Origin: Candidatus Heimdallarchaeota archaeon
GTDB taxonomy: Archaea; Asgardarchaeota; Heimdallarchaeia; Hodarchaeales; Hodarchaeaceae
Assembly (NCBI GenBank): GCA_011364965.1
Contig: RDOB01000004.1
Coordinates: forward strand, 64,001-128,000
Reading direction: 5' to 3'
DNA length: 64,000 nucleotides
The translations under genes and the position numbers were made by a program. Below the pieces are notes generated by a model. That model had not been told where the DNA came from, made no database searches, and saw nothing but the letters and a program-made list of their open reading frames with translations. Every line of letters starts with the position of its first letter. The stretch's first letter is position 1. Of the stretch, positions 27,950 through 46,053 are shown piece by piece.

Positions 27950-28435
27950 TCAGGCTGATTTGGTAGATAACTTAATATCTCCTGACAAGATACCACCAGC
28001 TGCTCCTGATGCTATTCCCATAGCTATTCCAGGTATAAGACCGATTACAGCGTAATTAATTAAAAATGAGATTTCTAAGAAAAAAACCTCGGGATTTTCA
28101 CCAAAATACAATATTCTAATCAATGCGCCTATAATCGGAAAAAATGCTGAGCCTATAATTGCTGCAAGAATACCTGATAAGATCCCTACAGCAATTGGAG
28201 ACTTGTAATCAGAACGATTAATCCAAATTCCTGCAACGAGTCCACTAATAAACCCGCTAAAAGCCCCAAAAAAGAAAGCAGATCCTAACGCGCGAGTAAA
28301 AATTTCATCAATTGTAGCTTCTCTTATTAATTCGATGGGATATATAAAATAGACTAAGGAGGCAAAGATCAAAGCAAATAAAAGGCCTAGAAGGGTAAAA
28401 TCAGTGAGAAAGATAAATTTTTGGGGAATTTTCAT
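27950..28435 (-). CDS. Gly-rich 4-TM membrane protein
   Basis: Four hydrophobic segments with GxxxG repeats. Confidence 0.75.
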   Translation of the reverse strand: MKIPQKFIFLTDFTLLGLLFALIFASLVYFIYPIELIREATIDEIFTRALGSAFFFGAFSGFISGLVAGIWINRSDYKSPIAVGILSGILAAIIGSAFFPIIGALIRILYFGENPEVFFLEISFLINYAVIGLIPGIAMGIASGAAGGILSGDIKLSTKSA

Positions 28436-29006
28436 TTTTAAATAATCCTTTGTTTCGTTCTTTGGCTTTCTTACGTTTGAACAACGTTTAAAAGAAAAAA
28501 TTGTCTTTATTTCTTCACTAAATACAAAATTCCTGTCAATTGGCCGTTATAGACTTGAGAGCTTAAAGGTTGTGTTTGAAATCTGTGTTAATTAAAACAA
28601 ATAAATTCCTTGTGTTATCTGCTATTGGTTGTTAGATTTTAACAGGCATTATACGTTCGCCTATATAGAAAATCCTGAAATTAATTTTACAATGCTATTT
28701 CCCAATAAAATTAGTTTTAATTTATTAATTCCATACTACATACTTTTCTGAGACGTCTTATGTATATAAATAAAGTTCAATTGTAATTTTTTACTCAAAT
28801 TCTAATACATAACTCATCTTAAGTTAATTTTTTGAAATAAATAAGTAAAAAGATAACTAGGGCTTCAGACTTAAATTACAGCAAAGCTTTCAATCAACCT
28901 CCATCGGGATTAAATATTTAAAAGCTCCAAAATAAAAAGTGAGATGCACAAGTCGCTAGATGCTCCTTCTCTCAATCTGGCTCTAGTAGCTAATAAATGA
29001 CCCTTC

Positions 29007-29028
29007 TTACCATGATAATTCATGGTAA
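29007..29028. promoter_or_regulatory. Inverted repeat TTACCATGA-N4-TCATGGTAA upstream of the ABC substrate-binding gene
   Basis: Perfect 9-bp arms, 32 nt before the first ATG. Confidence 0.5.
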
Positions 29029-29060
29029 CAACCATTGGAGTATTTAGCTGAGTTTGTGTT

Positions 29061-31007
29061 ATGGAGAAAATACAGATGAACGGAAAATATCGTATAGCAC
29101 TTGTCATTATAGGGATCTTTGCTATTACTCTCCTTAGCGGTTGTGTGGGTACAGAAACTCACGATACCCTTATTCTCCAGATCGAAGAAGAAATCATCGA
29201 TCTAGACAACCGATACTATGGTTCTAGCTCCCTTTACGACTCTGTTGTTGCTTATCAATACCAAGGTTACCTTGGATTGATAGCACCTGGTGAAACTATT
29301 GTTACTATGCCAGGTGTTGCAGAAAGTTGGGAATCCAACGAGGATCAATCCGAATGGACATTCAATCTAAGAGAAGGTTTGACATTCCATGATGGTACTC
29401 CGATTGACGCTAAAGCTGTCCGCTATAGCTTTTATGCTGACTTTATGGTTTATTACGGTCTAAATAATGTCAGTGAAGGAGAATTATACCTCAATACCTA
29501 CTTTGGAATGAATATTACTTTCCCTGACGCTGATCCAAATGGTGATGGATATGTCGTTAACTTCCACGGTGGTTGGTACCCCGACCCAATGTTCTTGTTT
29601 GATGTCTGTGGTCAATGGAATATATTCACTTTGATACCATACAATTCCCACGGCTCTTATACTGATTCTACTGAAGTTTGTCAGGATAAATTAGCAGATT
29701 TCCAAGACAATCCAGTTTCTTGTGGACCATACAAATTCGTTGAATATGCAACTCAGGACTATGTTCTTATGGAGCGATTTGACGATTGGTTTGGCTGGGG
29801 TGAAACATTTACTGGTAGTAATGGAGAAACTTACACCTTCCCAACACTCAGTAAGGCATTCAAATATCTAAAATTCCGAATTATTCCAGAAAAGGCTATG
29901 GCATTGGTTGAGCTTGCTACTAATGGTATTGATGTTACCACAGGTCGGTTCTCAAGCCAAGCATCATTCGAGGAAATCAATGAAACTGAAGGATTCTCTG
30001 CCTATAAACTACCCGTGTTAGGTGGAGCTACCATGGAAGTTAATCTTCAAGGTGATTGGCCAGCTGTTTTTGGTGGACCTGGTAACTATCCATTATCCGA
30101 GAGTTGGTTCCGTCAAGCTGTGTCTCATGCAGTTGACCGAACTAACATTGTTGATAATGTTTACCTTGGAATTGCTGATGAACGAAATACAATCTTTTCT
30201 GATTGGATCTTAGACAAATTCAGCAATATTGATGTTTCTGATTATTACGATTTTGATCAAGGTAGAAATAAATCCCTAGATATTCTTGCTGCAAATGACA
30301 TGACTGCACTTGGATTCAGTGATGAACCAGATAATATCCTTGGTTGGGGTTTATATGCCAACGAAACAGATATCAATGGTGTCCCACAAACCAAAGGCCG
30401 CCACTTAACTCTCACAACCATGGATTGTGACTTTTGTGTAAAACGTGCCCTTGCAGTCCAAAAAGACCTAAGGCAAATCGGTATCTATATTGATCCTGAA
30501 CTACTCGAATGGGGTCAATACCTAACTAAACTTTATGCTGGAACCCCGGGACAAAACTATAACACAACTGGTCCTCAGCCAGACCCAAATTTCATTGGAC
30601 CTGCTTGGGACTTTACTGTTGGTGGTTTTGGCGGTAACTACGAAACTCCTTGGGATTTCATTGCATACCAATCCTTTGCTACCTGGATGCAATATGGTCG
30701 TGGTGGCTACAGCTGGTTAAATATGAATTATGAAAAAGGTTATCGTATGGCTACTGGCTTTGCAATCAGCAGCAGACTCAGTGGATTCCCAGATTACGAC
30801 AGTACTGTCTGGCCTGTTCCTGAATGGTCAAACGATGATGAGCAATTCATCGAAGGTTGTGAGCTAGCTGGGTATGAGATGTCCTACGCCATGAATAAGA
30901 TACCTTTGGTCTGGTATGTAGACACTTATGCATTCAATGATCATTTACACAACTTCCTTGGTGCTCGTAACAGCATGTATCACGCTGCCTATGCATACTG
31001 GGAGTAA
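29061..31007 (+). CDS. Peptide/nickel ABC transporter substrate-binding lipoprotein (family 5)
   Basis: Lipobox LLSGC, WTFNLREGLTFHDGTPIDA, GPYKF, RQAVSHAVDR. Confidence 0.92.
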   Translation: MEKIQMNGKYRIALVIIGIFAITLLSGCVGTETHDTLILQIEEEIIDLDNRYYGSSSLYDSVVAYQYQGYLGLIAPGETIVTMPGVAESWESNEDQSEWTFNLREGLTFHDGTPIDAKAVRYSFYADFMVYYGLNNVSEGELYLNTYFGMNITFPDADPNGDGYVVNFHGGWYPDPMFLFDVCGQWNIFTLIPYNSHGSYTDSTEVCQDKLADFQDNPVSCGPYKFVEYATQDYVLMERFDDWFGWGETFTGSNGETYTFPTLSKAFKYLKFRIIPEKAMALVELATNGIDVTTGRFSSQASFEEINETEGFSAYKLPVLGGATMEVNLQGDWPAVFGGPGNYPLSESWFRQAVSHAVDRTNIVDNVYLGIADERNTIFSDWILDKFSNIDVSDYYDFDQGRNKSLDILAANDMTALGFSDEPDNILGWGLYANETDINGVPQTKGRHLTLTTMDCDFCVKRALAVQKDLRQIGIYIDPELLEWGQYLTKLYAGTPGQNYNTTGPQPDPNFIGPAWDFTVGGFGGNYETPWDFIAYQSFATWMQYGRGGYSWLNMNYEKGYRMATGFAISSRLSGFPDYDSTVWPVPEWSNDDEQFIEGCELAGYEMSYAMNKIPLVWYVDTYAFNDHLHNFLGARNSMYHAAYAYWE

Positions 31008-31023
31008 ACCCCTCATCTCCCTC

Positions 31024-31038
31024 TTTTTCTTTTTTTTT
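31024..31038 (+). terminator. Oligo-T terminator
   Basis: T-rich run 16 nt after the stop of the substrate-binding gene. Confidence 0.55.
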
Positions 31039-31413
31039 AAAACCAACAAAAAATTTCCCGTTTTTATATACCTTATTTAGGACTATAACAAATGTCAGTA
31101 GCAATAACAAGAACGATTAACAATATTTAAGTGAAGTGAATTCCTTTTCAAGAAGCTTAGAGTTTTTTCCCCACTTATGATTATCACTTTTTAGATACGG
31201 ACGCTTTAAAAGAATTAACCCAAAATGAACTTCCTTAGATTATATACATGCTTTATAAGGTTGATGTTATCGGCAATCCAAGCATTTTGATCTACTTACT
31301 TCTAATTCGTAAATTGATAACAAATTATCGTTAGGTACCTTTTAACAGAAGTAAAGCAAAGCAGTGGTAAGTACGAAACCTCGTACCTTATGAACCATGG
31401 TTTGTAAAAGTTT

Positions 31414-32430
31414 ATGGTGTTTAATTTGGCAGGATTAAGAGGATATGTAGTAAAGCGTCTTTTAATCGCACCTGTACTGCTAATTGTTATTACGATTATC
31501 ACATTTTCATCTGCAGCGTTAGCAGTCGGAGACCCCGCAACTTTGATTTTTGGTGGAGCCATCAATCCTGAAATGATGCGTGGAAAAGAAATGACCGAAG
31601 CGGATTATGCACAATTTGAAGCAGAGTACGAAGAATTAAGAGAAGAGCTTGGTCTCAATCATCCAATATGGATTCAATATCTAATCTGGTTGGCGCATTT
31701 AGCAACAGGTGATTTTGGAACAAATTGGGAAACTGATCGACCTATTGTTGAAGAAATGCTAGAACTATTTCCAGCCACGCTCCAGTTAGCAACGACAGCG
31801 TTATTATTTGCCTGCTCGACTGGTATTATTGTTGGTATCATATCAGCTATTAAACATAACCAAGCAACAGATCGGTTTCTCGTTTTTGCTACTCTGACTC
31901 TCTACTCAACTCCTGGATATTGGTTGGCATTTATATTAATCCAATTTCTTGCAATCGATCTCTATCCCTTACACAATGGATTTATAACCCCAGGATGGCG
32001 AGATAACGCTTCACCGATTGGAAGATTGATCATTCCTGGCGTTGCAATGGGTATCGCATCCGCAGGATTTTATGCAAGGATAACACGTTCTAGTATGTTG
32101 GAGGTAATCAGACAAGATTACATTATGACTGCTCGTTCAAAAGGACTTGCAGAAAAAATTGTTATCTATAAACACGCTCTGAAAAATGCCTTAATCCCTG
32201 TTGTTACTATTATTGGTCTCGATCTTGCGGGTCTTTTTGGCGGAGCTGTGATTATGGAGACAATTTTCTCATGGCCTGGAATGGGACGATATGGATATCG
32301 AGCTTTACAAATACGGAACTATCCTGTCATTATGGGAGTTGTACTGTTCAGTTCCACTCTCCTGATCATTATGAATCTGGTTGTAGATATAGCTTATGCT
32401 TATCTTGATCCCAGAATCAGATATGGATAA
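31414..32430 (+). CDS. oppB: Peptide ABC transporter permease (OppB/DppB)
   Basis: ELGLNHP..IQY, RSSMLEVIRQDYIMTARSKGL, ETIFSWPGMG, LDPRI. Confidence 0.94.
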   Translation: MVFNLAGLRGYVVKRLLIAPVLLIVITIITFSSAALAVGDPATLIFGGAINPEMMRGKEMTEADYAQFEAEYEELREELGLNHPIWIQYLIWLAHLATGDFGTNWETDRPIVEEMLELFPATLQLATTALLFACSTGIIVGIISAIKHNQATDRFLVFATLTLYSTPGYWLAFILIQFLAIDLYPLHNGFITPGWRDNASPIGRLIIPGVAMGIASAGFYARITRSSMLEVIRQDYIMTARSKGLAEKIVIYKHALKNALIPVVTIIGLDLAGLFGGAVIMETIFSWPGMGRYGYRALQIRNYPVIMGVVLFSSTLLIIMNLVVDIAYAYLDPRIRYG

Positions 32431-32438
32431 TAAAGTAG

Positions 32439-33410
32439 GTGAATACCATGGGCATGAGTTTAATGTCACAGAGTGAACTTGTTGATCAAGTTAAGAGAGA
32501 ACGAAGATTCCGAAATAGATTAATCGCGTATTTCAAGTCCCTATTAGGTAGCTGGACCGCGACCTTAGGACTTATTATTGTACTGGTATTCTTTGGAACT
32601 GCCCTTTTTGCTGATTTTATTGCTCCTTATCATCCTACACAGGATGATTATACAGTTGGAATGCCATCTTTTCAACCACCTTTTACTATTCCTGAGCAAC
32701 AACCTTTTCCCTTTGTTTTTGGAACAGATTGGTCTGGACAGGACATTTTTTCTAGAGTTATCCACGGAGCGCGTAGTGCAGTACTTGCGGGGACTATTGC
32801 AATATCAGTTGGGCTTACAGGAGGAATACTCCTAGGTGCTATCTCAGGATACGTTGGTGGATCTATAGACAACATTCTAATGCGAGTGGTAGACGCATGG
32901 ATGTCAATTCCTAGCTTTTTCATGCTGCTAATTATTGTAGCAGCTTTATCCGAGCAACCATGGAATCCAGCAGGTAAATATACTTTACTTATAGCAATGT
33001 TCTTTGTTGGTTTTATGGGGATTCCAGGATATGCAAGGATTATTCGCGGATCTGTTCTATCTGTTAGAGAAATGGATTTCATTGATGCTGCGAGAGCTAC
33101 TGGTTCAAGTGAAGCTCGAATTATAGCAAAGCATGTAATTCCTAATGTCTTCCCAATCATACTTGTTTATGCTACAATGGGAATTGGAGGAGCAATTATG
33201 AGTACAGCTGGTTTAAGCTTTATTGGGCTTGGAGCCCGTCCCAATCAACCAGACTGGGGTGGTGATATGAATGGAGCTAGATCTATCTTCTTCCAGTATT
33301 GGTGGCCTATGTTTTTCCCTGGTCTAGCAATATTTGTTGTGGTTCTTGGATTTAATCTCTTAGGAGATTGGCTTCGAGATGTTTTGGACCCAAGAACAAG
33401 GGATGTGTAA
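32439..33410 (+). CDS. oppC: Peptide ABC transporter permease (OppC/DppC)
   Basis: FGTDWSGQDIFSR, EAA loop DFIDAARATG, HVIPN, GDWLRDVLDP. Confidence 0.94.
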   Translation: MNTMGMSLMSQSELVDQVKRERRFRNRLIAYFKSLLGSWTATLGLIIVLVFFGTALFADFIAPYHPTQDDYTVGMPSFQPPFTIPEQQPFPFVFGTDWSGQDIFSRVIHGARSAVLAGTIAISVGLTGGILLGAISGYVGGSIDNILMRVVDAWMSIPSFFMLLIIVAALSEQPWNPAGKYTLLIAMFFVGFMGIPGYARIIRGSVLSVREMDFIDAARATGSSEARIIAKHVIPNVFPIILVYATMGIGGAIMSTAGLSFIGLGARPNQPDWGGDMNGARSIFFQYWWPMFFPGLAIFVVVLGFNLLGDWLRDVLDPRTRDV

Positions 33411-33413
33411 TTA

Positions 33414-34388
33414 ATGGCATCAAATGGTACATTATTAGATATCCGCGACCTCCGTACATATTTCTATACCAAGAAAGGAGTAGTTCGTGCAGTGGATGGG
33501 ATCTCTTATAGCATCAAGCGAGGAGAAAGTCTTGGTCTCGTTGGTGAAAGTGGTTGTGGTAAAAGTGTTTCCGCGTTGACTCTTATGCGATTAATTCCTC
33601 AACCCCCAGGTAAAATTGTAAGCGGAGAAGTCTACTTCGATGGAATCAATTTATTGAAGTTACCTATGCATGAAATGAGAAAAATCCGTGGGAATAAGAT
33701 TTCAATGATTTTTCAAGATCCAATGACTTCACTAAATCCAGTTTTAACTGTAGGAGATCAGGTCGGTGAAACAATAGCACTTCATCAAGAATTAACAAAA
33801 AGAGAAGTTATTGAAAGAGTAATTGAGTATTTTGCGATGGTTGGTCTCCCAAATCCCGAAGATAGAGTAGAAAATTACCCCCATCAACTTTCAGGTGGAA
33901 TGCGTCAACGAGTGGGAATTGCAATGGCATTATCCTGTAATCCTAATCTCTTGATAGCAGATGAACCCACAACTGCACTGGATGTCACTATTCAAGCACA
34001 GATATTAGAAATTATGGCGAATTTAATGCAGGAAATTCAAACTTCTCTTATTTTGATCACACATAATCTTGGGCTTGTTGTTGAACTTAGTCAGAAAGTA
34101 GCAGTTATGTATGCAGGACATATCGCTGAATTTGGACGAGTGGACCATATTTTCGAAGCTCCAATGCATCCTTACACAATAGGTTTGCATGAATCTATCC
34201 CCAAGATTAATATAAAACGGGATAGGCTTATTCCAATACCAGGGGAAGTCCCAGATCTCATCAATCCTCCACCGGGCTGTCCTTTCCACCCAAGATGTTC
34301 TAAAGCCATGCCGGTCTGTCGGGAGAGTTATCCTGATACAGTGGAAATTGAACCTGGTCATAAGGTAGCGTGTCACCTTTATTTATAG
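33414..34388 (+). CDS. oppD: Peptide ABC transporter ATPase (OppD/DppD)
   Basis: GESGCGKS, LSGGMRQR, DEPTTALD, C-terminal Cys motif. Confidence 0.96.
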   Translation: MASNGTLLDIRDLRTYFYTKKGVVRAVDGISYSIKRGESLGLVGESGCGKSVSALTLMRLIPQPPGKIVSGEVYFDGINLLKLPMHEMRKIRGNKISMIFQDPMTSLNPVLTVGDQVGETIALHQELTKREVIERVIEYFAMVGLPNPEDRVENYPHQLSGGMRQRVGIAMALSCNPNLLIADEPTTALDVTIQAQILEIMANLMQEIQTSLILITHNLGLVVELSQKVAVMYAGHIAEFGRVDHIFEAPMHPYTIGLHESIPKINIKRDRLIPIPGEVPDLINPPPGCPFHPRCSKAMPVCRESYPDTVEIEPGHKVACHLYL

Positions 34389-34403
34389 CAAGGAGAAGAT
34401 TAT

Positions 34404-35393
34404 ATGTCAGAGAATATTATTGAAGTAAAAAATCTAAGGATGTACTTTGAAGTATCAAGAGGTCTCTTTTCTAGTGAAACACTTACATTAAGGGCAGTCG
34501 ATGATGTCAGTTTCAATATAAAAAAGGGCGACACACTTGGATTAGTCGGAGAAAGTGGATGCGGAAAAACCACTACCGCTAGATGCATTTTAAAGCTATA
34601 CGAATCAACTGGAGGCAGCATCAAATTCGAAGGATTAGAGGTTACAAAGCTTAAAGGGCGAAAACTTAGACAACTTCGACGAGATATGCAAATCATTTTT
34701 CAGGATCCTTATGCTTCATTAGATCCAAGAATGAAAGTTGGAGATATCATTGGAGAACCATTAATTGTTCATGGGGTTGCAAACGCTTCAGAAAGATCAG
34801 AAATTGTATTTAATTTGATTAAGACTGTTGGACTAGCTCCTGATCATTATTATCGATATCCCCACGAGTTTTCTGGGGGACAGCGACAACGAATTGGAGT
34901 AGCACGTGCTTTAGCGTTAAATCCAAAGTTCATCGTAGCAGATGAACCAGTTTCTGCATTGGATGTTTCGATTCAGGCTCAAATTCTTAATTTATTACAG
35001 GATTTACAAAATGAACTGAATTTAACGTATTTGGTTGTCGCGCACGACTTAGGAGTCGTTAGACATATAACGAGAGAAACAGCAGTGATGTATGTTGGTA
35101 AACTTGTAGAACAATCCCCAACCGAAGATTTATTCCATAATCCATCACATCCATATACTGAAGCTCTTATTTCAGCAGTACCAAGCTTGGATCTTCAACG
35201 GAAAATGAATCGGCTTGTTCTTCGAGGAGATGTTCCTTCTCCGATCTTCCCACCACCAGGATGTCGATTCTCTCCACGATGTATTTATGCAAAATCAATC
35301 TGTTCTCAAGAAGAACCAAATCTAGAGGAAATATCTCCGGGTCATTTTGTAGCATGTCACTTCCCTCTTGAAGAATCTGAGTATGCGTATTAA
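34404..35393 (+). CDS. oppF: Peptide ABC transporter ATPase (OppF/DppF)
   Basis: [24 protein letters not shown]. Confidence 0.96.
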
Positions 35394-35398
35394 TACCC

Positions 35399-35419
35399 TT
35401 TTTTCCTCTTTTTTCTCTT
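35399..35419 (+). terminator. T-rich terminator after oppF
   Basis: Pyrimidine/T tract directly after the stop. Confidence 0.5.
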
Positions 35420-35488
35420 CAAATCATCTATTGAAAATTTGTTGCACTAATCCTAAATTCATATATTGATGTTATTATCGGAGAGACC

Positions 35489-37492
35489 TTGATTTATATG
35501 AACACCATAATTAAACCTGTTACATTAATTTGCGTGTTTTTTTTCACTACTGGACTTCTTATCAAAACATCGCATGTTAATGCGTCATTTTATGATATCC
35601 CTGAAATCTCTTATGGAGATTCGACCATTTATTCTCATATTATTTTTACTGGCTTTAATCAGGAGATCTTAGCTAATATTGTTCCCATTTCTCCTTTCTC
35701 CCAATCTCTTCTTCCAGAATATGTTTCAAACTCTTTTAAACAATCTTTCACTAGCGAAACTTTCTTCATTAGACATTCATATGAAATTTCATCTTCCATT
35801 TTTGAGGGTTTACTCTTTGATCAACTTAATATCTCAGCTCAATTAAACACAGTCAATTTAACTGATGGAACCCAAGTAACTGGAAAATTTATTAATGCCA
35901 ACGATACCTTAAACTGGATAGGGGAAAGATACGAAACTTTCTTTGGTTCAATACCAAAACCAGGGTATAGTTTGATTATTGCTAACTATTCCAATCTTGA
36001 TGATATCACACACCCAAATCATTGGTATAATCAATCTTGGAAGGATCCAGATACAGAAAAACCATTAGAAAGTCAGTTTATGACTGGGTTTGGATCACAA
36101 GACCGAATTTATTATATAGATTTATCCACTGATTCATATATTCTTCAGGATTCGGGAGAGAACGGAACTCTTCAAGAATTGGAATATTTATACAATTTTA
36201 ACACTGAATTTGGGCTAAATAAGCTTGCAGAATATTTAGCTGAATGGATCTATGAAATAGAACGAAATCTCTTCATCCAAGAGTTCCAATATCAACCACT
36301 GATTCCAATGGGAGACCTTTGGAGTGGCACTCAATTCTTGTTTGAAACCCTAGTACTCTGTAATATATCTGATTATAGTGCTAGTGACCTCAATTGGACA
36401 ATCAATGAGGATTATCTTCTTGAGAAAATGAAAGATGTTTATCCGTGGATGAAAATGGAATTCAAGGTCAGATTTGTAAATTTGACTGATGTACCTGTCC
36501 TTGATGAATTAATATATAACTCTATGGTATCGTGGGATACCTATAATGATCAATCGTCTCATAAATACGGCATTGATGTGAGTTTGATATATAGGGAATT
36601 ATATACGAGGTCCGATTTTTATATGGAGGAAGAAATTAGTTCCTCATTTTATACTATTCATTTCAAAACATTTGCTTTTCTGTTTGATAATGCGTTATTT
36701 GGTACCCCCCATAAAGCTAAACTAGAACCTATTAGTAGAGGGCTTGCTTTAAGAGATGCTGCGAATCGTCCATTGAATATCATTGGTAAAAGTTTTCAGG
36801 AGATATTTGGCGAGAATCGTTCGAATCCTTCTCCAAATATAGGATTAAGTCGGGCTATTTTACAAGAATTCGGACACCAACTTGGATTGATCCACACCTT
36901 TCAATCTGGAGCTGTGGGGAATTTTGTAGATGATGTGATGGCATACTATCCCTATTCAACTAGATTTAGTATTTTTTCCATTGATAATGCTAGAAGAGGT
37001 CAAATAGACTTTCTTGTAAGGACAGGGGTTTTAAGATATCAAATAGCAGCGCAAAATGTTGAGAAAAAAGTGTATGATGAGAATTTATTAAATTACTTCT
37101 ATTTTCTTGCAGATTCCTATGAAGAAATCCTTACTTATTACAATCAAATGAATTATAGTAGAGCTTTTTCGTTAGCTAAAACTTTTTATTTAACTCTTCT
37201 AGACTTTGATCCTCAATTAAGAGGATATGCTGACTCTAGAGATAGGACAGAAATGACACCAGTTTTTTTCAGCTTAATGCTTGTCTTCCTGATAATTGCA
37301 GTTTATTATCGAGGAAAATTTCAAGTTTTTAGGAAGATGCACCCAAGGAGGGATCTTCTTACACCTGATATGGTTACTAAATTTGAAGAAAAAGCTCGGG
37401 AGAGGTTTATAGCTTCCCGACAAGCTGCTAAAGAAAAATTCTTAGAGACTCAACAACGGATCCAAGAAGAAAAAAACAATGAAATAGAATAA
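35489..37492 (+). CDS. Single-pass surface protein with a variant metzincin-like motif (QEFGHQLGLIH)
   Basis: Signal peptide, xExxHxxGxxH, downstream DVMAY Met-turn-like motif, TM helix and charged cytoplasmic tail. Confidence 0.7.
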   Translation: MIYMNTIIKPVTLICVFFFTTGLLIKTSHVNASFYDIPEISYGDSTIYSHIIFTGFNQEILANIVPISPFSQSLLPEYVSNSFKQSFTSETFFIRHSYEISSSIFEGLLFDQLNISAQLNTVNLTDGTQVTGKFINANDTLNWIGERYETFFGSIPKPGYSLIIANYSNLDDITHPNHWYNQSWKDPDTEKPLESQFMTGFGSQDRIYYIDLSTDSYILQDSGENGTLQELEYLYNFNTEFGLNKLAEYLAEWIYEIERNLFIQEFQYQPLIPMGDLWSGTQFLFETLVLCNISDYSASDLNWTINEDYLLEKMKDVYPWMKMEFKVRFVNLTDVPVLDELIYNSMVSWDTYNDQSSHKYGIDVSLIYRELYTRSDFYMEEEISSSFYTIHFKTFAFLFDNALFGTPHKAKLEPISRGLALRDAANRPLNIIGKSFQEIFGENRSNPSPNIGLSRAILQEFGHQLGLIHTFQSGAVGNFVDDVMAYYPYSTRFSIFSIDNARRGQIDFLVRTGVLRYQIAAQNVEKKVYDENLLNYFYFLADSYEEILTYYNQMNYSRAFSLAKTFYLTLLDFDPQLRGYADSRDRTEMTPVFFSLMLVFLIIAVYYRGKFQVFRKMHPRRDLLTPDMVTKFEEKARERFIASRQAAKEKFLETQQRIQEEKNNEIE

Positions 37493-37709
37493 AACTAAAT
37501 TTTCATGCTGGATTTATTGTGAAACATTGACTCTTATACCCAAAGTGTCAACAAGATCTAAAAATTAGATTTTTTAAGAATCCAAGTCAGATGAATCAGT
37601 TGCATATATCATGAAGGATATAAAGGAATTTACAATATATCTAAAAGAAGAATCCTCGAATTCAAACCGGGAGGATTTTTTAAGGAAATAATTTCTTATA
37701 TGATCGAAG

Positions 37710-38459
37710 ATGCCCCGTTTAAATATTTCAGATCGTGACTTGATAATAGCAGCAGTAATCACTATAATCTATCTTCTTACAGGTTTCACCCCGAACCCTT
37801 TAGAATGGCCTAATCAAATTGAGAATCGTTTTACATTAATGGAATCCATACAACCAGAAAATCCCGATATTATTGAGTTAAATGCCAAATTTGAGGCTTT
37901 CTATCAATCAGAATACCAAAAACTTGGCACCAAGGACATGCGAGAGGAGCAAATTGAAGCAGAGGCATTAGAGGAATTCCTCTATGCAGAAATTCCGTAT
38001 ATTAATGACTTTGAAAACTATTTTGCTTGGGAGCATTTCCCTGAGATTTCAGAAGTGATTACCCGAGGAGATGATTGCGATGGTATGGCAATCGTTGCAT
38101 GTTCGATACTCACCAGAAGGGGATATGAAAGTTATGTTTTGAATTCCAAATGGCACTCCTGGATAGAAATCTACCTTGATGATGGGGTTGTATTATCAAT
38201 TTTAACTGATCCTGAAAGCATGACGACACCTTGGTATTTAAAATATAACGCAAATAGCATTAATTTTCGATTAATTTCTTATCTTGATGTGGTTTTTCAT
38301 AATTTTATCTTATTGCTCTTTTTAGAACAGATTTTTGTTACTTTTTATCTTTTAATAAAAAGATATGATTCTTTTCAACAAATTTACACAACTTTACTAG
38401 CATTACTTTTATCCCCTCTCCCAGTATTACTGATGTTTGCTAGCTTATTAGGTTATTAA
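37710..38459 (+). CDS. Membrane-bound transglutaminase-like cysteine protein
   Basis: GDDCDGMAI and HSWIEI motifs; N- and C-terminal TM helices. Confidence 0.72.
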   Translation: MPRLNISDRDLIIAAVITIIYLLTGFTPNPLEWPNQIENRFTLMESIQPENPDIIELNAKFEAFYQSEYQKLGTKDMREEQIEAEALEEFLYAEIPYINDFENYFAWEHFPEISEVITRGDDCDGMAIVACSILTRRGYESYVLNSKWHSWIEIYLDDGVVLSILTDPESMTTPWYLKYNANSINFRLISYLDVVFHNFILLLFLEQIFVTFYLLIKRYDSFQQIYTTLLALLLSPLPVLLMFASLLGY

Positions 38460-38497: not shown

Positions 38498-38947
38498 CTA
38501 CATACCAGAGGTAGTTAATGTCTGATAAAAAAGCCATAAAATCCAAACAACTACCATCGAAGCTAGTACAACAATTCCGCTGTACAGAAATTTTAAATCT
38601 CTTTCAATAAAGAAGGAATTAGATGATGGGGGATTTTTAGCTACATTTTTAGATTCTACTTTCCTATATTCTTTATATTTTGGGGTAAAACCAGTCTTTT
38701 TTTCCTTAGTAACAGTAGCTGGTTTTCGGATAAATGGAGGAATAAGACCAAAAGCAATTAGAATAGTTCCAATGAAGAAAAGAAAATTACTCATGGCTGT
38801 GGATACTAATTGTAAATAAGGAATATTGCTCAGTGTAAGATCAACCGTTAATATTAAGCTGATTACAGAGAAAAAGAAGCTTAAGATAATTGCAGCAGTA
38901 CTCCATCTGATTATGTCAGGTATTAATGGTTCGAAATGTTTAATCAT
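38498..38947 (-). CDS. Small 3-TM membrane protein
   Basis: Three hydrophobic segments with a basic loop; 6 bp after the arrestin-fold gene. Confidence 0.72.
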   Translation of the reverse strand: MIKHFEPLIPDIIRWSTAAIILSFFFSVISLILTVDLTLSNIPYLQLVSTAMSNFLFFIGTILIAFGLIPPFIRKPATVTKEKKTGFTPKYKEYRKVESKNVAKNPPSSNSFFIERDLKFLYSGIVVLASMVVVWILWLFYQTLTTSGM

Positions 38948-38953
38948 TAATTA

Positions 38954-39829
38954 TCACTTAATAGTCTGTTCTCTTATAGGATATTCAATACTAATAGGGA
39001 ACTCCCCTAAGAGCTTCAAGCTCTCTGAAGATGTTAAAAATCTTCTTTTTGTAAGAATTTGATAAATTCTTATTGTATATTCCACCCGTGAGAGAAGTCC
39101 TTTATAATTGTGTTGATAATCGGATGGAATTTGAAATTTAATTGGAATATCGGATAAATTTTGACTAAATTCAATTTGACCTAGGGGGAGTTCTGTTAGA
39201 TCGCTCTCTATGATCACATTTGAAGCTTTTACAACTTCTCTTCGAGCTAGTACAAATCGAACGGGACTAATTTCCATTAAATTATATGTGGATATTGAAA
39301 TCAAGTTCTCAGATCCAATTAACAACGGTTCAAGTGTTTTCAAAGAGAGACCTCCATGATCATACTCAAGTTCCACGATTTTGTCTGATCTTTTATAGGA
39401 TGAATCTATTAAAATTCTTTGCGATTCCTGGTACCGCTTCCCACTTTCTAGCATTATATCGAGCAGAACTCTATATTCTACTTTGCAATTTGCTCCATAA
39501 TACGAAGGAATGGCGTTTTCAGGTACCTCAAGTTTAATTCTGGTTTCTAAAAGGAATTGAGATTTTTCAATGACTTGAGTTTGTGTTAAGAACTCAGTTT
39601 CTTCCTTTAGATGTTTACTTGGCAATAAAAAACTCCATGTTGGATGAAATCCTTTCTTTCCTAATAATGATTGAATTGTGAATTCGACTTTTTCCACTCC
39701 AATAAGTGAAGCTGAAGCTTCAATTACTGCTTCTTTCTCTTGAGGAAAAGAAATCGCCAGATCAATGAAGTCTCCCTGAGAGAATACCTGTTTTAGAAGT
39801 TTTATCATATTTAAATCCAAGCTTTTCAA
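38954..39829 (-). CDS. Arrestin-fold (alpha-arrestin/Vps26/SpoOM-like) two-lobed protein
   Basis: Internal repeat IKLEVPENAIPSYYG..CKVEYRV / IKFQIPSDYQHNYKG..SRVEYTI; LIGVEKV strand. Confidence 0.72.
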   Translation of the reverse strand: MKSLDLNMIKLLKQVFSQGDFIDLAISFPQEKEAVIEASASLIGVEKVEFTIQSLLGKKGFHPTWSFLLPSKHLKEETEFLTQTQVIEKSQFLLETRIKLEVPENAIPSYYGANCKVEYRVLLDIMLESGKRYQESQRILIDSSYKRSDKIVELEYDHGGLSLKTLEPLLIGSENLISISTYNLMEISPVRFVLARREVVKASNVIIESDLTELPLGQIEFSQNLSDIPIKFQIPSDYQHNYKGLLSRVEYTIRIYQILTKRRFLTSSESLKLLGEFPISIEYPIREQTIK

Positions 39830-42753
39830 GTAATTTCAGATAATATGTCAGCTCGCGCGATTCTTAGTGTTTCTAGATTTAATTCAGGATGATATCTACT
39901 CAAAAAGTACAAATATCCTCCTGTTATCTCTTGCATCACCAAAAGCAAAAGGTATGACCACAAATGAATGAAATGTCTTCCCCTATAGACCCCTGAATCA
40001 GAAATGAGATTTTTAAGTAGATCAGTGTACGTTTCTGCTTTGCTCATAGGAATAGAACGAAGTAAAGAAGCTCCTCGCGTATTTGTGCTGAAGATAGTGA
40101 GAGAGATTTTTTCCTTCTTTATCTGATGTGCTAGGGATATACAATCTTCAATAGCGAGTTTTACTGCAAGATCAATACCTAAATTCCGCAATGATTTCTC
40201 TCGAGAAAGATTTGTAGTTGGATCTACAAGTAAGGGTATATTAGTAGCTCCGTCTGTGATGAGTATTATCATAGGTATCGTTTCATGTTTACTACGAATT
40301 CTATCAAGTTTAATTAACTCTAACGCCTTCTGTAAACCTCCAGGCAGTGGGGTTGAACCTGATGCACGAAGATCCATAAGTTTGCGTTTTACTAAGTTCA
40401 AATTGGACGTGGGTGGCTGAATTATTACCCCTTGTGTTCCTTGTAAGACTACAACACCAACACGATCACGATAAAGATAAGCTTGTCTACTTAACCAAGT
40501 CACAGAATCAGAGACTGATTTGATGGTATTAACTATTGATTCAGATAAATCTAAAACGAAAATTATCGTAGCTGATACTCTCGTACAGTAGACGTTTTCT
40601 CGGATATCGTCTTTTTCTATTGAAAATGGAACTCCTTTTTGCAATAATCCTTCCCTATAGTTTCTTAAAATTGCGTTTTTAATCGTGGCGAGGATATGCA
40701 TATTTTTAGGTATTATTTTAAAATCTTGATGGCCAATTACTCGTCCCGAATCGAGACCAGTTATACTTAAAGCGCGTTTACCTATTTTGCTTCGAATTTT
40801 TGAATCAGGTTTGGATTTGATGCTAGGTGAAGAGTCAAAGACAACTTTAACTGGTTTTGTTTCCTTTGATGTTTGTGCAATAGATGCAATCAATGGAATA
40901 CCATCTTTTTCCTCTGAACTTTGACTTTTTACCAAATTTAAATCCTTTAACTTATCCATTAAATTCAATCCATACTCTTCAGTCCGATTTGGAATTTGAG
41001 GGGCAGAATCCTTGGGTGATATATGAGATCCAATTCCACCGCTTTCTAATGGTATACTAGTTTCAGAGGGTGACGCACCAATATCTGCAACTCGTTTAAT
41101 CTGCCATTGCTTTTTCATTAAAGCAGATATAACTCCAATCGTAACCAAACACAAAAAGAAGAAGATTAAACCCAACCAGAATTCAGGAGGTAGTATTAAT
41201 ATTAAGTAGGTATATAGTATTATACTTACTAGGAGTATAATAATTCCATATATAGACAACCAAAACCGCTGGCGCTCTGTAGGAGAAATCATTCCCCTTC
41301 TTTGCCTTAATCCGAAGAATCGGAGAATTCCTCCTTTTTTACTACGGTTTTCTTCAATATCAAGAATAATTTCAGTTTTGGGTTTTGTTTTAGCTTCTTT
41401 TGTTTTCTCAGTTAATTTTAAACTTTTTACGCGGGAAAAAGAGGTTATATTAGGTTTTTTCATGTTCTTGGTCAGGATTCCATGTTCTTCCATAATTTTT
41501 TGTCGTCTTTTAAACCATAAAAAGAGAAGGAAGGAGGAAAATCCCCATAAAACAATGATACTAAAAAATTTTAATAGCATTTCTGGAACAGAGAATATAG
41601 TTACCAGTATAATAGCAATTAAATATGCTCCAACAGTGATTCCTAATATAGAGGCAAACCATTCAATTATCCTCCTCTTTTGCAAATGAGATTCATCACT
41701 ATATGGAAGCTTTCTAGAGAGATTGATTTCGGAAGAAGCTGTAGAATCAGTTTGGCTAGATGGCATTTCCGATTTAATTAACTGCTGGAGAATTTGAATT
41801 TTTTCGTTAGATACTCTATGATTTAAAACGAAGGGAGCAAGTAATATAATATCCTCTTTAATAACTTTGGATCTCCCATCGAGGCTAGCGAGAGCTCGTG
41901 CACCACGAGCCAGTGCTATATCAGCTCTTTGGCCTTGAAGACCTGCGCGAAGACAGAGAGAAGCGATAAAGTTAAGACATTCCTTTGAAATTATAACATT
42001 TTGTAGGAGTATTCGGGAGTTAGTAATAATTTTGTTGAATTTTGATTCTTCTAAGGAAAAATGCAAACCATTGGGAGAAATGTTACGCTCAAGTATATCT
42101 ATCCTTTGATTAATGGTATTATCATATTGTATTCTATATGAAAACGCAAATTTATCAAGGATAGAACTTGAGATATCTGAAAATCCTGTATTTATACTGG
42201 AAATTAAACAAAAATTACTCGGGTGTTGAAAGGAGAGCATATCTCTTTGAATTATATTTGTATGATTCTTCCATATTTCCAAAATGATGTTTAAGATGTT
42301 TGGGGGTAATAAATGTAGATCATCGATCAACAGATATCCGTTGTTAACCCTACCTAGAATTCCAGGACGAAAAGTTAATTTAATATCAAAACTTCCAATA
42401 ATAGCCTCTATTGAAGCATGGGGAGGTAAAAAAATTAGGGGCGAAAACCCCCATACTTTCGTTCTTATTCCTGCTTCAACCCTTTTTAAACAGGAGGAAC
42501 AAAGGTTCTCCTGATCGAAAGAACAATTGTATGGACAGTTCTCGATTTTCTGGAGGGGAATTTTCATTTGAGAAAAACCTCTCAAGAATTGGGACTTACC
42601 AACACCAGTTTCACCTAAGATGACCAAACCATCGATTGAGGGATCGATAGCTAATAACAATAGAATTAACTTGAGATATTCATTGCCTTGAAGCTCAGAA
42701 AGACCTAAAAAATTATAGTATCTTGGTTTAGATTCATTCTGATCTTCAACCAT
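39826..42753 (-). CDS. ChlD-like AAA+/vWA protein with four inserted TM helices
   Basis: GETGVGKS, LLIDDLH, vWA MIDAS DLSES, GSTPL, ITDG; ATG at 42753 avoids the overlap with the upstream gene. Confidence 0.88.
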   Translation of the reverse strand: MVEDQNESKPRYYNFLGLSELQGNEYLKLILLLLAIDPSIDGLVILGETGVGKSQFLRGFSQMKIPLQKIENCPYNCSFDQENLCSSCLKRVEAGIRTKVWGFSPLIFLPPHASIEAIIGSFDIKLTFRPGILGRVNNGYLLIDDLHLLPPNILNIILEIWKNHTNIIQRDMLSFQHPSNFCLISSINTGFSDISSSILDKFAFSYRIQYDNTINQRIDILERNISPNGLHFSLEESKFNKIITNSRILLQNVIISKECLNFIASLCLRAGLQGQRADIALARGARALASLDGRSKVIKEDIILLAPFVLNHRVSNEKIQILQQLIKSEMPSSQTDSTASSEINLSRKLPYSDESHLQKRRIIEWFASILGITVGAYLIAIILVTIFSVPEMLLKFFSIIVLWGFSSFLLFLWFKRRQKIMEEHGILTKNMKKPNITSFSRVKSLKLTEKTKEAKTKPKTEIILDIEENRSKKGGILRFFGLRQRRGMISPTERQRFWLSIYGIIILLVSIILYTYLILILPPEFWLGLIFFFLCLVTIGVISALMKKQWQIKRVADIGASPSETSIPLESGGIGSHISPKDSAPQIPNRTEEYGLNLMDKLKDLNLVKSQSSEEKDGIPLIASIAQTSKETKPVKVVFDSSPSIKSKPDSKIRSKIGKRALSITGLDSGRVIGHQDFKIIPKNMHILATIKNAILRNYREGLLQKGVPFSIEKDDIRENVYCTRVSATIIFVLDLSESIVNTIKSVSDSVTWLSRQAYLYRDRVGVVVLQGTQGVIIQPPTSNLNLVKRKLMDLRASGSTPLPGGLQKALELIKLDRIRSKHETIPMIILITDGATNIPLLVDPTTNLSREKSLRNLGIDLAVKLAIEDCISLAHQIKKEKISLTIFSTNTRGASLLRSIPMSKAETYTDLLKNLISDSGVYRGRHFIHLWSYLLLLVMQEITGGYLYFLSRYHPELNLETLRIARADILSEIT

Positions 42754-42767
42754 AAAATAAAGGGCTC

Positions 42768-43238
42768 CTAAATAGAAGTTCCTTCCGTTAATGGATTCTC
42801 TCCTTTTCTGATAAAGAAAAATAATAAGGTTAAGAGAAAGCAATTTGCAGAAGCCAACGTAAAGATTTCTTCCACGAAAGCTATTAATAACAATACACCA
42901 ACGAACCAAAGAACAGAAATGACAGCTGCACGACGAATAACCCACTTTAATAATATTCTTTCTTCTTCATTCAATCCTTCATCGATTGCAAGCATAATTA
43001 CAACATAACCAAAATTATATACAAAAACCATCATTCCAACAAACAAAATTAGTAAAAGCACAGTTTGCATTAAGATGAGGATAGGAGAACTTGTCTGAGC
43101 ATACCCTGAATATGTAAGTAATGCAACTGATCCGAATATAATTCCAAAGAGGAGAGAAAAAAAGACACCCTTGTGATCTGAGATCCAACCACTAATACCT
43201 TGAGGTGATTTCTTTTGTTGCTGCCACTGCACTTTCAA
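42768..43238 (-). CDS. 4-TM membrane protein
   Basis: Four hydrophobic segments; ends 14 bp before the ChlD-like ATG. Confidence 0.75.
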   Translation of the reverse strand: MKVQWQQQKKSPQGISGWISDHKGVFFSLLFGIIFGSVALLTYSGYAQTSSPILILMQTVLLLILFVGMMVFVYNFGYVVIMLAIDEGLNEEERILLKWVIRRAAVISVLWFVGVLLLIAFVEEIFTLASANCFLLTLLFFFIRKGENPLTEGTSI

Positions 43239-43308: not shown

Positions 43309-45195
43309 CTAAAAAAACTTCATGGAGACATGCGTAAGTGGAGAATGAAGTTTGATTCCCGTACGCTCTTCAACCAAAGCAATTAGCTCCTTATATAACT
43401 CTAAATAATCCACCTCTGAGTTATTTGTTAATCCAGGGATGTTAATCTTATTAGCCTTGGCAATCTCTATAGCTTCTTCATATCCAGCTGCAGCATGACG
43501 TAAAACTGCAGACATAGGATCCCACGTGAGAACACGGAAAAGTCGCTCCTGAGAAAGTTGAGTCCCATCAGCTACACATACTTGCCCAGCATGCAAGGAA
43601 TATCCAACACCAACCCCTCCTCCCCCGTGATAACTCGTCCAAGTTGCTCCACATAAGGAATTCCCAAGGAGATTTAAAACAGCATAATCACCAATTGCAT
43701 CTGATCCATCTTTCATTCCTTCAGTTTCGCGATAAGGACTAGCAACAGATCCACCATCAAGATGATCCCTTCCAATAATGACGGGAGCTTGGATTAATCC
43801 GTCAAAATACAACTTATTTAGAAGCATTCCAAAAGCTGCCCTTCCTTTGTAACCTGCCCAGAACACACGAGCGGGAAGTCCATTTTCAAAGGGAATGAAT
43901 CGGGAAGCCAGATCTAACCAATTTAAAAGCATAGGATCGTCTTTGAACAACATCTTTGCATACTCATCCGTCACATAAATATCTGCAGGATTATTAGATA
44001 AAGCTGCCCATCTGAAAGGCCCCTTTCCTTGACAAAATAGGGGTCTGATGTAATTGGGGACAAAGCCTGAAAAATTGAACGCGTTTTTTGCTCCTGCTGA
44101 ATGAGCTTGAGCTCGAATATTATTCCCATAATCAAATGTTTCCGCGCCTCGCTCTTGTAACTTCAACATGGCTTCTACATGTTTTTTCACTGTTTCATAA
44201 GCCAATTGTTTATATTTAGTGGGATCACTTTTTCTAAGAGATTCTGCTTGAGAATAGGTCATACTAGCAGGTACATATCCATTTAACATATCATGAGCGG
44301 AAGTTTGATCAGTTAAAACGTGGGGAGTAATGTTATTTTCAAGTAAATATTCTAAGAGATCAACTGCATTACATAAAACGCCAATAGAAGTTGCTTCTCC
44401 TCTTTCAACATATTCTTTTGCAAGAAACACACCTTCCTGTATATCATTCACTTTATTATCTAAATAAGGAGTCCCTTTACTCCTACCCTCATTGAACATA
44501 CGATCCAAATTTGAGGGATCTATCTCGGCGATTAATCCGATTTTCCCAGCCATTTTGATAGCTAACGCTTGAGCACCTCCCATTAATCCTAAACCTGCGG
44601 TAACTGCCAGATTTTGTTCAAAATGGGAGAGTTTGGGATAATTAGAGTTATTTTCTGCAGATTTAATCGCGGCAACAAAAGTTTCGTATGTACCCTGTAT
44701 GATTCCCTGAAGACCAATAAATATCCAACTACCTGCAGTCATTTGTCCATAAACAGTCAAACCAGCATTAACCATTTCCTGAAATGACTGGGTCCAATTG
44801 GGTACGATTACTGAATTGGTAATAACACAACGTGGGGCAAAGGGATGCGTAATCATCTTACCATAAGGAACTCCTGATTGCATGAATAGCGTTTCATTAG
44901 GTTTCAGGGTTTTTAGATATTCAATAGTGTCAAAAAAAGCTTTCCAATTCCTCAGGGCTTTCCCACTGCCTCCATAAATGAAAAACTTTTCCCAATCCTT
45001 CCCATTATGGAGATTCGATATTAAAGCACGAATAATACCTTCGGTTTGCCATCCTGCTTCAGTCTTTGGCACGAGAGCGTCGTTTCCTCGGGGAAGTGGA
45101 GGAATTGTATCTGGTTTTATATCCAATCTTAGACGAGTTGATTCGTCTAGCTGGTACTTTCCCTCAATAATCTCCTGCAGACGTGACTTTTTCAT
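43309..45195 (-). CDS. hutU: Urocanate hydratase
   Basis: YGQMTAGSW, QGTYETF, TDQTSAHD, FDYGNNIR, GRDHLD, RETE.MKDGSDA. Confidence 0.97.
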   Translation of the reverse strand: MKKSRLQEIIEGKYQLDESTRLRLDIKPDTIPPLPRGNDALVPKTEAGWQTEGIIRALISNLHNGKDWEKFFIYGGSGKALRNWKAFFDTIEYLKTLKPNETLFMQSGVPYGKMITHPFAPRCVITNSVIVPNWTQSFQEMVNAGLTVYGQMTAGSWIFIGLQGIIQGTYETFVAAIKSAENNSNYPKLSHFEQNLAVTAGLGLMGGAQALAIKMAGKIGLIAEIDPSNLDRMFNEGRSKGTPYLDNKVNDIQEGVFLAKEYVERGEATSIGVLCNAVDLLEYLLENNITPHVLTDQTSAHDMLNGYVPASMTYSQAESLRKSDPTKYKQLAYETVKKHVEAMLKLQERGAETFDYGNNIRAQAHSAGAKNAFNFSGFVPNYIRPLFCQGKGPFRWAALSNNPADIYVTDEYAKMLFKDDPMLLNWLDLASRFIPFENGLPARVFWAGYKGRAAFGMLLNKLYFDGLIQAPVIIGRDHLDGGSVASPYRETEGMKDGSDAIGDYAVLNLLGNSLCGATWTSYHGGGGVGVGYSLHAGQVCVADGTQLSQERLFRVLTWDPMSAVLRHAAAGYEEAIEIAKANKINIPGLTNNSEVDYLELYKELIALVEERTGIKLHSPLTHVSMKFF

Positions 45196-45348: not shown

Positions 45349-46053
45349 TTATGACTTTTGGAGCTGAGAAATGATAATATCTCGGATTACCATCTGGATA
45401 GGTTGAATAATCCGCTGAACTGCCTGTGGACGCTGTTTTGGATTCCATTCACCACGAGTCCACGCATCTTTCAAAGCACTGAGGGCTTCTAGGCAACTCA
45501 CCTCAAATGTACTGGCAAACGTGTCTCGTAACTTGTCAGAAATGCCTGCTTCAATCATAAGACGTCCAACATCAGCAGCAGAGATCCGGGTTTCAGCAGG
45601 TAAATCCATTTTATTTAACATAATTGCCATTTTTACCTCTCTACTATACAATTTATCACCTAATATAGTAAATAATTCTATTAAACTCTCTCTATTCTCC
45701 TCCCAGCGAGCTTTCTCGGAATCAATGACAACAATTAAGCCATGCAGTCCATTAATGACAATTTTTCGCATTGATTTAAACCGATCTTGTCCTGGGGTGG
45801 TGAAAAGATGGTACTTAAATGCCTTTCCAGCACCAGTGCCAAGACCAAAGGTAGCTTGGTCAAATCCGATTGTACGTTCTGTTGCTTTGTCTTCAAGTTT
45901 TAAAAAATTGTAAACACTCTCAGGGTCTTCTTTCTTCTTAATTGCGTGAAATAAGCTTAGGGCAGTGGTCTTCCCAGCCAAAGTTGGGCCCCAAAAAACA
46001 ATTTTTACCCCTTGTTGAGACTCTTCAAAAACCAGCTCTTCTTCTTGGCTCAA
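45349..46053 (-). CDS. Small GTPase, MglA/Arf-like
   Basis: G1 GPTLAGKT, G2 ERTIGFD, G3 TTPGQ, G4 NKMD, G5 SCL. Confidence 0.9.
   Translation of the reverse strand: MSQEEELVFEESQQGVKIVFWGPTLAGKTTALSLFHAIKKKEDPESVYNFLKLEDKATERTIGFDQATFGLGTGAGKAFKYHLFTTPGQDRFKSMRKIVINGLHGLIVVIDSEKARWEENRESLIELFTILGDKLYSREVKMAIMLNKMDLPAETRISAADVGRLMIEAGISDKLRDTFASTFEVSCLEALSALKDAWTRGEWNPKQRPQAVQRIIQPIQMVIRDIIISQLQKS

Follow-up and report, generated by a model that had tools for sequence, protein, structure and literature searches.

An operon of Hodarchaeales archaea in which the gene for a membrane-anchored ChlD-like protein lies among genes for two small membrane proteins and an arrestin-fold protein

We analysed a stretch of 64,000 nucleotides from contig RDOB01000004.1 (positions 64,001 to 128,000; assembly GCA_011364965.1), referred to below as the window, and focused on a minus-strand operon of four genes within it. 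The source genome (G000) is a metagenome-assembled genome (MAG) of 2.97 Mb, 87% complete, from the Hodarchaeales, Asgard archaea that stand close to eukaryotes. According to the list of open reading frames (ORFs) and their coordinates, the operon begins with a gene for a small protein with four transmembrane (TM) helices (4-TM), continues with genes for a ChlD-like membrane protein, here called ChlDm, and for an arrestin-like protein, and ends with a gene for a second small membrane protein with three helices (3-TM) (Table 1). The first two genes are separated by 14 bp and the last two by 6 bp. An earlier, sequence-only reading of this DNA had described tight packing with these same gaps, and the ORF coordinates agree. 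It had also placed a 4-nt overlap between chlDm and the arrestin-like gene, which holds for the TTG start at 39829 and is replaced by a 17-nt gap if the ATG at 39808 is used, the position at which the two closest arrestin-like orthologues begin. The four genes are tightly packed under either choice of start.

Table 1. Features of the operon and its surroundings, with positions counted in the window.
Feature	Position	Strand	Basis
4-TM membrane protein, 156 aa	42768-43238	-	ORF and hydropathy
ChlDm, ChlD/BchD-like, 975 aa, ATG start	39826-42753	-	Pfam, PDB sequence search
ChlDm, AAA+ module (aa 20-330)	41764-42696	-	pairwise alignment with ChlI, AlphaFold2
ChlDm, two TM helical hairpins (aa 355-557)	41083-41691	-	hydropathy, AlphaFold2, alignment
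ChlDm, vWA and C-terminal helical extension (aa 727-975)	39829-40575	-	alignment, Pfam VWA_2
Arrestin-fold protein, 291 aa (284 aa from the ATG at 39808)	38954-39829	-	AlphaFold2 and fold searches
3-TM membrane protein, 149 aa	38498-38947	-	ORF and hydropathy
ChlI-type AAA+ ATPase, 340 aa	26919-27941	+	Pfam, NCBIfam
hutU	43309-45195	-	upstream of the operon
Small Arf/Ras-type GTPase	45349-46053	-	upstream of the operon, next to hutU
Segment between operon and ChlI: DUF5518 membrane protein, Opp-type transporter, 667-aa and 249-aa proteins	27950-38459		

ChlDm carries the Pfam domains Mg_chelatase, AAA_lid_2 and VWA_2, and its nearest solved relatives by sequence in the PDB are BchI (1g8p, E 6e-40) and the von Willebrand factor A (vWA) domain of BchD (2x31_A, E 2e-11). 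Scored against the NCBIfam equivalogs for BchD-ChlD and 'putative cobaltochelatase', it stays far below both cut-offs (TIGR02031, 242 bits against 499.6; TIGR02442, 320 against 779.5). In an alignment of 14 orthologues the Walker A motif is intact and invariant (GETGVGKS), and Walker B reads DD rather than DE, with D144 and D145 again invariant. The arginine-finger motif, RPQLLDR in ChlI, is replaced by SSSILDK in the pairwise alignment of the two proteins, so that the AAA+ module of ChlDm is, judging from its sequence, probably ATPase-dead. The vWA domain has a complete metal ion-dependent adhesion site (MIDAS; DLSES ... T ... D, with D735, S737 and S739 invariant) and no other part of the protein is as well conserved, residues 725-840 being nearly invariant.

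Hydropathy places four TM helices between these domains, arranged as two hairpins, and the AlphaFold2 model has helices at residues 355-387, 390-423, 493-520 and 523-557 (pLDDT 64 for the model, about 80 for the AAA+ module). The hairpins are linked by a conserved basic cytoplasmic loop and their outer loops are very short; all soluble parts of ChlDm are thus predicted to face the cytoplasm. The membrane insertion of ChlDm, like the 4-TM and 3-TM calls of the sequence-only reading, is borne out by these analyses. When 400 Asgard genomes were searched with the TM and linker region of ChlDm, seven genomes of a single genus gave matches; outside that genus, matches were confined to the vWA core. 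A four-cysteine insert (C-x3-C ... C-x2-C) lies in the AAA+ modules of both ChlDm (aa 73-90; window 42480-42540) and ChlI (aa 57-75); it is deleted in 4 of the 14 ChlDm orthologues and may bind zinc.

The ChlI-type ATPase is encoded on the opposite strand, beyond the segment that follows the operon. Its Walker A, Walker B and arginine finger are all intact, and it is 34% identical to the N-terminus of ChlDm. Among 24 Hodarchaeales species genomes, the 340-aa ChlI and ChlDm are present in the same seven. The two genes are direct neighbours in one of these genomes (G003) and in two further loci (L054 and L055), and in locus L056 chlI lies at the 3' end of the operon, beside the 3-TM gene. This co-occurrence (7/7), the adjacency in four contigs and the paralogy that is usual for ChlI/ChlD-type pairs make ChlI the probable motor partner of ChlDm, as had been proposed from the sequence alone.

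The arrestin-like protein has no TM helix and is predicted to be cytosolic. Its AlphaFold2 model, built with 13 homologues, shows two consecutive beta-sandwich lobes (pLDDT 76.8) whose relative geometry is uncertain (predicted TM-score 0.56; root-mean-square deviation 8-12 A). Foldseek, one of the checks that the sequence-only reading had suggested for its two-lobed arrestin fold, returned VPS26C, ARRD-6, TXNIP, Vps26 and beta-arrestin as top matches with E about 1e-10 and probability 1.00, and only structures of the arrestin clan matched over both lobes. The VIA-align Z score was 13.3 for Vps26 (243 residues, both lobes), 12.8 for arrestin-1 and 11.8 for the N-lobe of Spo0M. The arrestin fold is thereby confirmed, and because Vps26 and the arrestins tie in Z, the scores point to no single subfamily. 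An N-lobe motif, P-x-N-A-I-P-S-Y-Y-G, resembles the hallmark of arrestin N-domains, and a highly conserved insert at residues 53-81 is specific to the family, which has eight representatives among 1.8 billion proteins.

Sequence profiles connect this family to other arrestins at low scores. Its orthologues have faint or precomputed matches to Pfam Arrestin_N/C, and a profile of the family picks up ORFs of 280-310 aa in other Asgard genomes (weak, E 2e-6 to 1e-2); those that were inspected are positive for Pfam Arrestin_N/C. The PF02752 profile had no match in the genome, nor did PF03635 (Vps35), for which control genomes were equally blank. We dismissed a viral origin, as no relative of the arrestin-like protein was found in IMG/VR. 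The Pfam-positive arrestin genes of other Asgard genomes occur in three settings: in tandem arrays, such as a run of three that precedes an EutA gene; in alternation with genes for small TM/zinc-ribbon proteins; and, in two genera, after an EamA transporter (L030 4798-9050; L031 6687-10754; L029 4141-7564; L032 5398-7407). Membrane-protein neighbours may be a recurring theme of Asgard arrestin genes.

Hydropathy gives four and three TM helices for the two small membrane proteins. The 4-TM protein, for which no Pfam match was found, has both termini predicted in the cytoplasm. One of its cytoplasmic loops is conserved (DEGL..EE), and its C-terminal tail, ENPxxE, is invariant (E147, N148, P149 and E152 in the family alignment). 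Its family comprises 35 clusters, all from Hodarchaeales-type MAGs; the best score of an ESM Atlas look-up was 0.81, too little to inform. The 3-TM protein exposes a basic cytoplasmic loop of 47 residues with a conserved F-x-P-K-Y motif.

A paralogue of the 4-TM protein, equal in length, 18-30% identical and with the ENPxxE tail kept, is encoded just downstream of a second Opp-type ATP-binding cassette (ABC) operon in five genomes (G010, G015, G017, G001 and G000; positions G000:C11:53397-53849, which is about 9401-9790 of L048, and L020:6063-6533; also L044, L045 and L046). It is followed by genes for a 113-aa protein resembling winged helix-turn-helix proteins and a 118-aa 3-TM protein, and a gene for a 711-aa solute-binding protein faces it. 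These associations, all in one genus, hint at a link between the 4-TM family and peptide transporters. We rejected paralogy between the 118-aa 3-TM protein and that of the operon, since BLASTP was blank and hhalign gave a probability of 3%.

The gene order of the operon is not unique to this genome. At least nine MAG species of the Hodarchaeales, all of one GTDB genus, share it with gaps of -26 to 35 bp, and as the arrestin-like proteins of these species are 38-65% identical, its recurrence goes beyond chance. The arrestin-like, 4-TM and 3-TM genes co-occur in the same 6 of the 24 species genomes, and the genomes with ChlDm and ChlI are these six plus G003.

The operon and chlI occupy a variable slot between hutU and hutH, inside a histidine-utilisation cluster (window 25106-45195; loci L021-L024, L013 and L054-L056). 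The slot is empty, with hutU abutting hutH, in three genomes (G010, G015 and G018), and in a fourth (G014) it holds other cargo, namely a 1011-aa kinase-like/aminotransferase fusion and a 144-aa protein. In G003, L054 and L055 it contains chlDm and a convergent chlI only; no 4-TM, arrestin or 3-TM gene was found in these two loci or in the G003 genome, which is 83% complete. In L006, the most divergent relative and just outside the genus, it contains the 4-TM, arrestin and 3-TM genes with no chlDm. The compact form, L056, reads hutU, 4-TM, chlDm, arrestin, 3-TM, then convergent chlI and hutH, with nothing else; its 3-TM gene had been overlooked by the gene caller. The arrangement of the window, with an Opp-type peptide ABC transporter (SBP5 and OppBCDF) in the segment between the 3-TM gene and chlI, recurs in G001, G002, G005, G006, G016, L005 and L051/L052, and the whole 17-kb stretch is collinear in six species.

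These slot states, like the gene content, folds, motifs, topology and distribution, are what the analysis shows, and they separate ChlDm/ChlI from the arrestin trio in both directions. The ChlDm proteins of G003, L054 and L055 form one clade (support 0.92) in which every invariant column is kept, including the MIDAS, which implies that the motor has persisted through several speciations in the absence of the trio. Conversely, the 4-TM, arrestin and 3-TM genes form a unit of their own, and the arrestin-like protein of L006 keeps the family motifs with no ChlDm in its locus. In a tree of flanking genes (three genes only), the genomes that bear the island are paraphyletic with supports of 0.83-0.93, which suggests that the cluster is old and has repeatedly decayed. 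The genes upstream of the operon do not follow these states. The sequence-only reading had noted hutU and an MglA-like GTPase on the same strand, and they do lie there; both hold their positions in every slot state, including in genomes without the cluster, and hence are bystanders rather than functional context. The GTPase is 78-91% identical across the genus, with or without the cluster.

We consider it about an even bet (probability 0.5) that the cluster joins two modules, a ChlI/ChlDm motor and an arrestin trio, and that the motor acts on an arrestin/membrane-protein complex or on a client that both share. The five genes would then be a lineage-restricted accessory set of one Hodarchaeales genus. 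The first module would be an orphan chelatase-type motor, with ChlI as the active AAA+ ATPase and ChlDm pinned by its two helical hairpins to the cytoplasmic face of the membrane, where its MIDAS vWA should grip an acidic residue of the client. The second module would consist of the cytosolic arrestin-fold protein and the two small polytopic membrane proteins whose genes flank its own. On the model of arrestin and Vps26, the arrestin-fold protein probably docks on the cytoplasmic motifs of the 4-TM and 3-TM proteins and so serves as an adaptor at the membrane. The position of chlDm inside the operon of the second module would go back to an ancestor of the genus. Where both modules are present, the motor would most likely act on the complex of arrestin and membrane proteins, or on a membrane client common to the two. 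All physical contacts in this scheme, and the direction in which one part acts on another, are what we infer from the genes and models. A particular course of events, in which the arrestin adaptor docks on the cytoplasmic tails of the small membrane proteins and hands them over to ChlI and ChlDm, seems to us doubtful.

Several observations weigh against this scheme. Each survives alone, and cooperation is therefore optional at best. With L006 placed just beyond one GTDB genus and every other carrier within that genus, the nesting of chlDm may go back to one event that has been inherited since then. The arrestin gene is missing in 15 of the 21 species of the genus, and loss of the cluster in most species is typical of dispensable cargo. 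For the arrestin-like protein of the window, no Pfam model scored over threshold, the sub-cut-off match being Rgp1 at 19 bits. The cluster is thus not a proven sorting machine; it has the look of two modules brought together within a single operon.

A serious alternative is that there is no functional link: two unrelated accessory modules and the Opp segment would have gathered in a recombination-prone hutU-hutH slot, and the arrangement would then have been inherited within one genus. The empty slots, the other cargo of G014 and the differing subsets elsewhere speak for this, as does the fact that every carrier belongs to one genus and that the collinear 17-kb stretch reaches beyond the four genes. 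However, chlDm lies inside the trio operon and not beside it, the tight spacing has been retained despite protein divergence to 38-50% identity, and the five genes are still together in L056 without the Opp segment. On balance, we regard the absence of any link as less likely than the joined modules.

The sequence-only reading had proposed a membrane-protein sorting or remodelling machine. Of that reading, the fold assignments, the membrane insertion of ChlDm, the gene order conserved beyond this genome and ChlI as the probable motor are supported. Its strictest form is weakened, namely one obligate five-protein machine in which the arrestin selects, a ChlDm ring holds the client through its MIDAS and ChlI powers remodelling or sorting. 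Such a machine would suit the position of chlDm, which at least nine species keep between the 4-TM gene and the arrestin gene at distances under 35 bp, and the compact L056 with precisely the five genes. It is made less likely by the persistence of each half alone, that is, by the clade with ChlDm and ChlI but no trio (G003, L054 and L055) and by the trio of L006 without ChlDm; moreover, membrane-anchored ChlD-like genes elsewhere in Asgard archaea are not near arrestin genes. We judge the obligate machine improbable.

Comparably long odds apply to a role in peptide uptake, in which the arrestin-like and small membrane proteins would tune an Opp-type ABC transporter, in loose parallel to the control of nutrient permeases by alpha-arrestins in yeast. 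In most carriers an Opp operon lies between the four genes and chlI, five genomes have the 4-TM paralogue just behind another Opp-type operon, and the slot is part of a histidine-utilisation cluster. Yet L056 has the five genes without Opp genes, the slots of L054, L055 and G003 are also without them, all of the associations are confined to one genus, and no link of the ubiquitin-ligase type is known. A true Mg, Co or Ni chelatase for tetrapyrrole synthesis is very improbable: BchI, BchD and the 'putative cobaltochelatase' family are the best sequence relatives, but the scores are far under the NCBIfam equivalog cut-offs, membrane helices replace the linker, and the 87% complete genome has no CobN/ChlH (PF02514) match over the cut-off while control genomes were positive, which rules against a classical chelatase.

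Other genes of the transporter loci gave further observations. The intervening segment of the window encodes, on the plus strand, a 667-aa protein (35489-37492) with a weak M43 peptidase-like match and a 249-aa membrane protein (37710-38459) with a Cys...His...Glu/Asp pattern (GDDCDGMA ... WHSWIE), which we take to recall transglutaminase-like proteases; searches of Pfam and NCBIfam returned nothing above noise for either. The two genes face the operon in most carriers and are missing from the compact form L056. At the second Opp locus, the OppF-like ATPase is matched in three genomes as two pieces about 500 bp apart (L048 11389-12906; L045 4302-5843; L046 2691-4199), and an intein, a split gene or the insertion of a domain may lie behind this.

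Arrestin and Vps26-like proteins of Asgard archaea are counted as eukaryotic signature proteins. The cluster offers a concrete context for them, with candidate membrane partners that carry conserved cytoplasmic motifs and a putative ATP-driven vWA motor anchored in the same membrane. If an arrestin adaptor does pass its cargo to the motor, prokaryotes would have an ATP-powered device that selects or remodels membrane proteins and has no counterpart among described systems, and an Asgard arrestin would for the first time be placed in a functional setting. Being narrowly and patchily distributed, the cluster is a poor candidate for a core role in eukaryogenesis. The natural variants (motor only, trio only, all five genes or none) already separate the parts and are a guide to informative combinations.

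Our literature search, whose coverage was incomplete, found no paper that combines arrestin, archaea, von Willebrand and AAA+, and none that describes a ChlD inserted in the membrane or pairs one with an arrestin-fold protein; the description of Hodarchaeum makes no mention of arrestin, vWA or chelatase. New in this analysis are the map of slot states, the compact form with five genes, the clade that has the motor alone, the contig that has the trio alone and the second 4-TM paralogue beside an Opp operon.

Among known systems, the arrestin clan (Vps26, alpha- and beta-arrestins, Spo0M) shares the two beta-sandwich lobes of the arrestin-like protein. Arrestin-domain and Vps26-like proteins have been published from Asgard archaea (Zaremba-Niedzwiedzka 2017, as cited in 10.1101/2021.04.02.438162; Eme 2023, PMC10307638). 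The protein of the window differs from other Asgard arrestins in its gene partners. With the MoxR-type AAA+/vWA pairs, which are RavA-ViaA, CbbQ-CbbO and NorQ-NorD, the cluster shares, as far as domain content goes, the general logic of an AAA+ ring with a MIDAS vWA adaptor that grips and remodels the client, but the ATPase here is of the ChlI and not the MoxR type. We dismissed an anti-phage defence system, since PADLOC returned no match for the four operon proteins and only a generic AAA match for ChlI.

ChlDm also compares with the class I chelatases. Like ChlD/BchD (and CobT), ChlDm has an N-terminal ChlI-like AAA+ module with degenerate motifs and a C-terminal MIDAS vWA, and a separate active paralogue is present here too, as ChlI/BchI or CobS is there. 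Unlike them, ChlDm has four membrane helices and basic loops in place of a soluble, acidic, proline-rich linker, the large porphyrin-binding subunit (ChlH/BchH/CobN) was not found in the genome, and its gene lies within an operon that also encodes an arrestin-fold protein. The lack of that subunit makes a classical chelatase role unlikely and is a point in common with the frameshifted orphan chlD genes (fs-chlD), to which the literature ascribes no clear function where ChlH/CobN is missing (Antonov et al., PMC3711429, PMC9227772). The ChlI/ChlD-type pair of the window differs from these in being two separate genes with no slippery run, and in its arrestin neighbourhood, which is peculiar to this genus. 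The same genome has a second, soluble ChlI-vWA pair split over two frames at an A10 run (G000:C2:28669-31025; L057 2669-5025), which resembles the published fs-chlD genes and has a single 797-aa frame as its counterpart in G010.

In two Thorarchaeia-type genomes (G392 and G328), a ChlI-like ORF that is 47% identical to the ChlI of the window stops at an A9 run; the vWA ORF behind it starts with two TM helices, compared with four in ChlDm. The neighbours of these genes are housekeeping enzymes, and the arrestin genes are on other contigs. Membrane-anchored ChlD-like motors are thus a wider Asgard theme that is independent of arrestins, and the cluster described here extends the orphan ChlI/ChlD motors by a branch that is anchored in the membrane.

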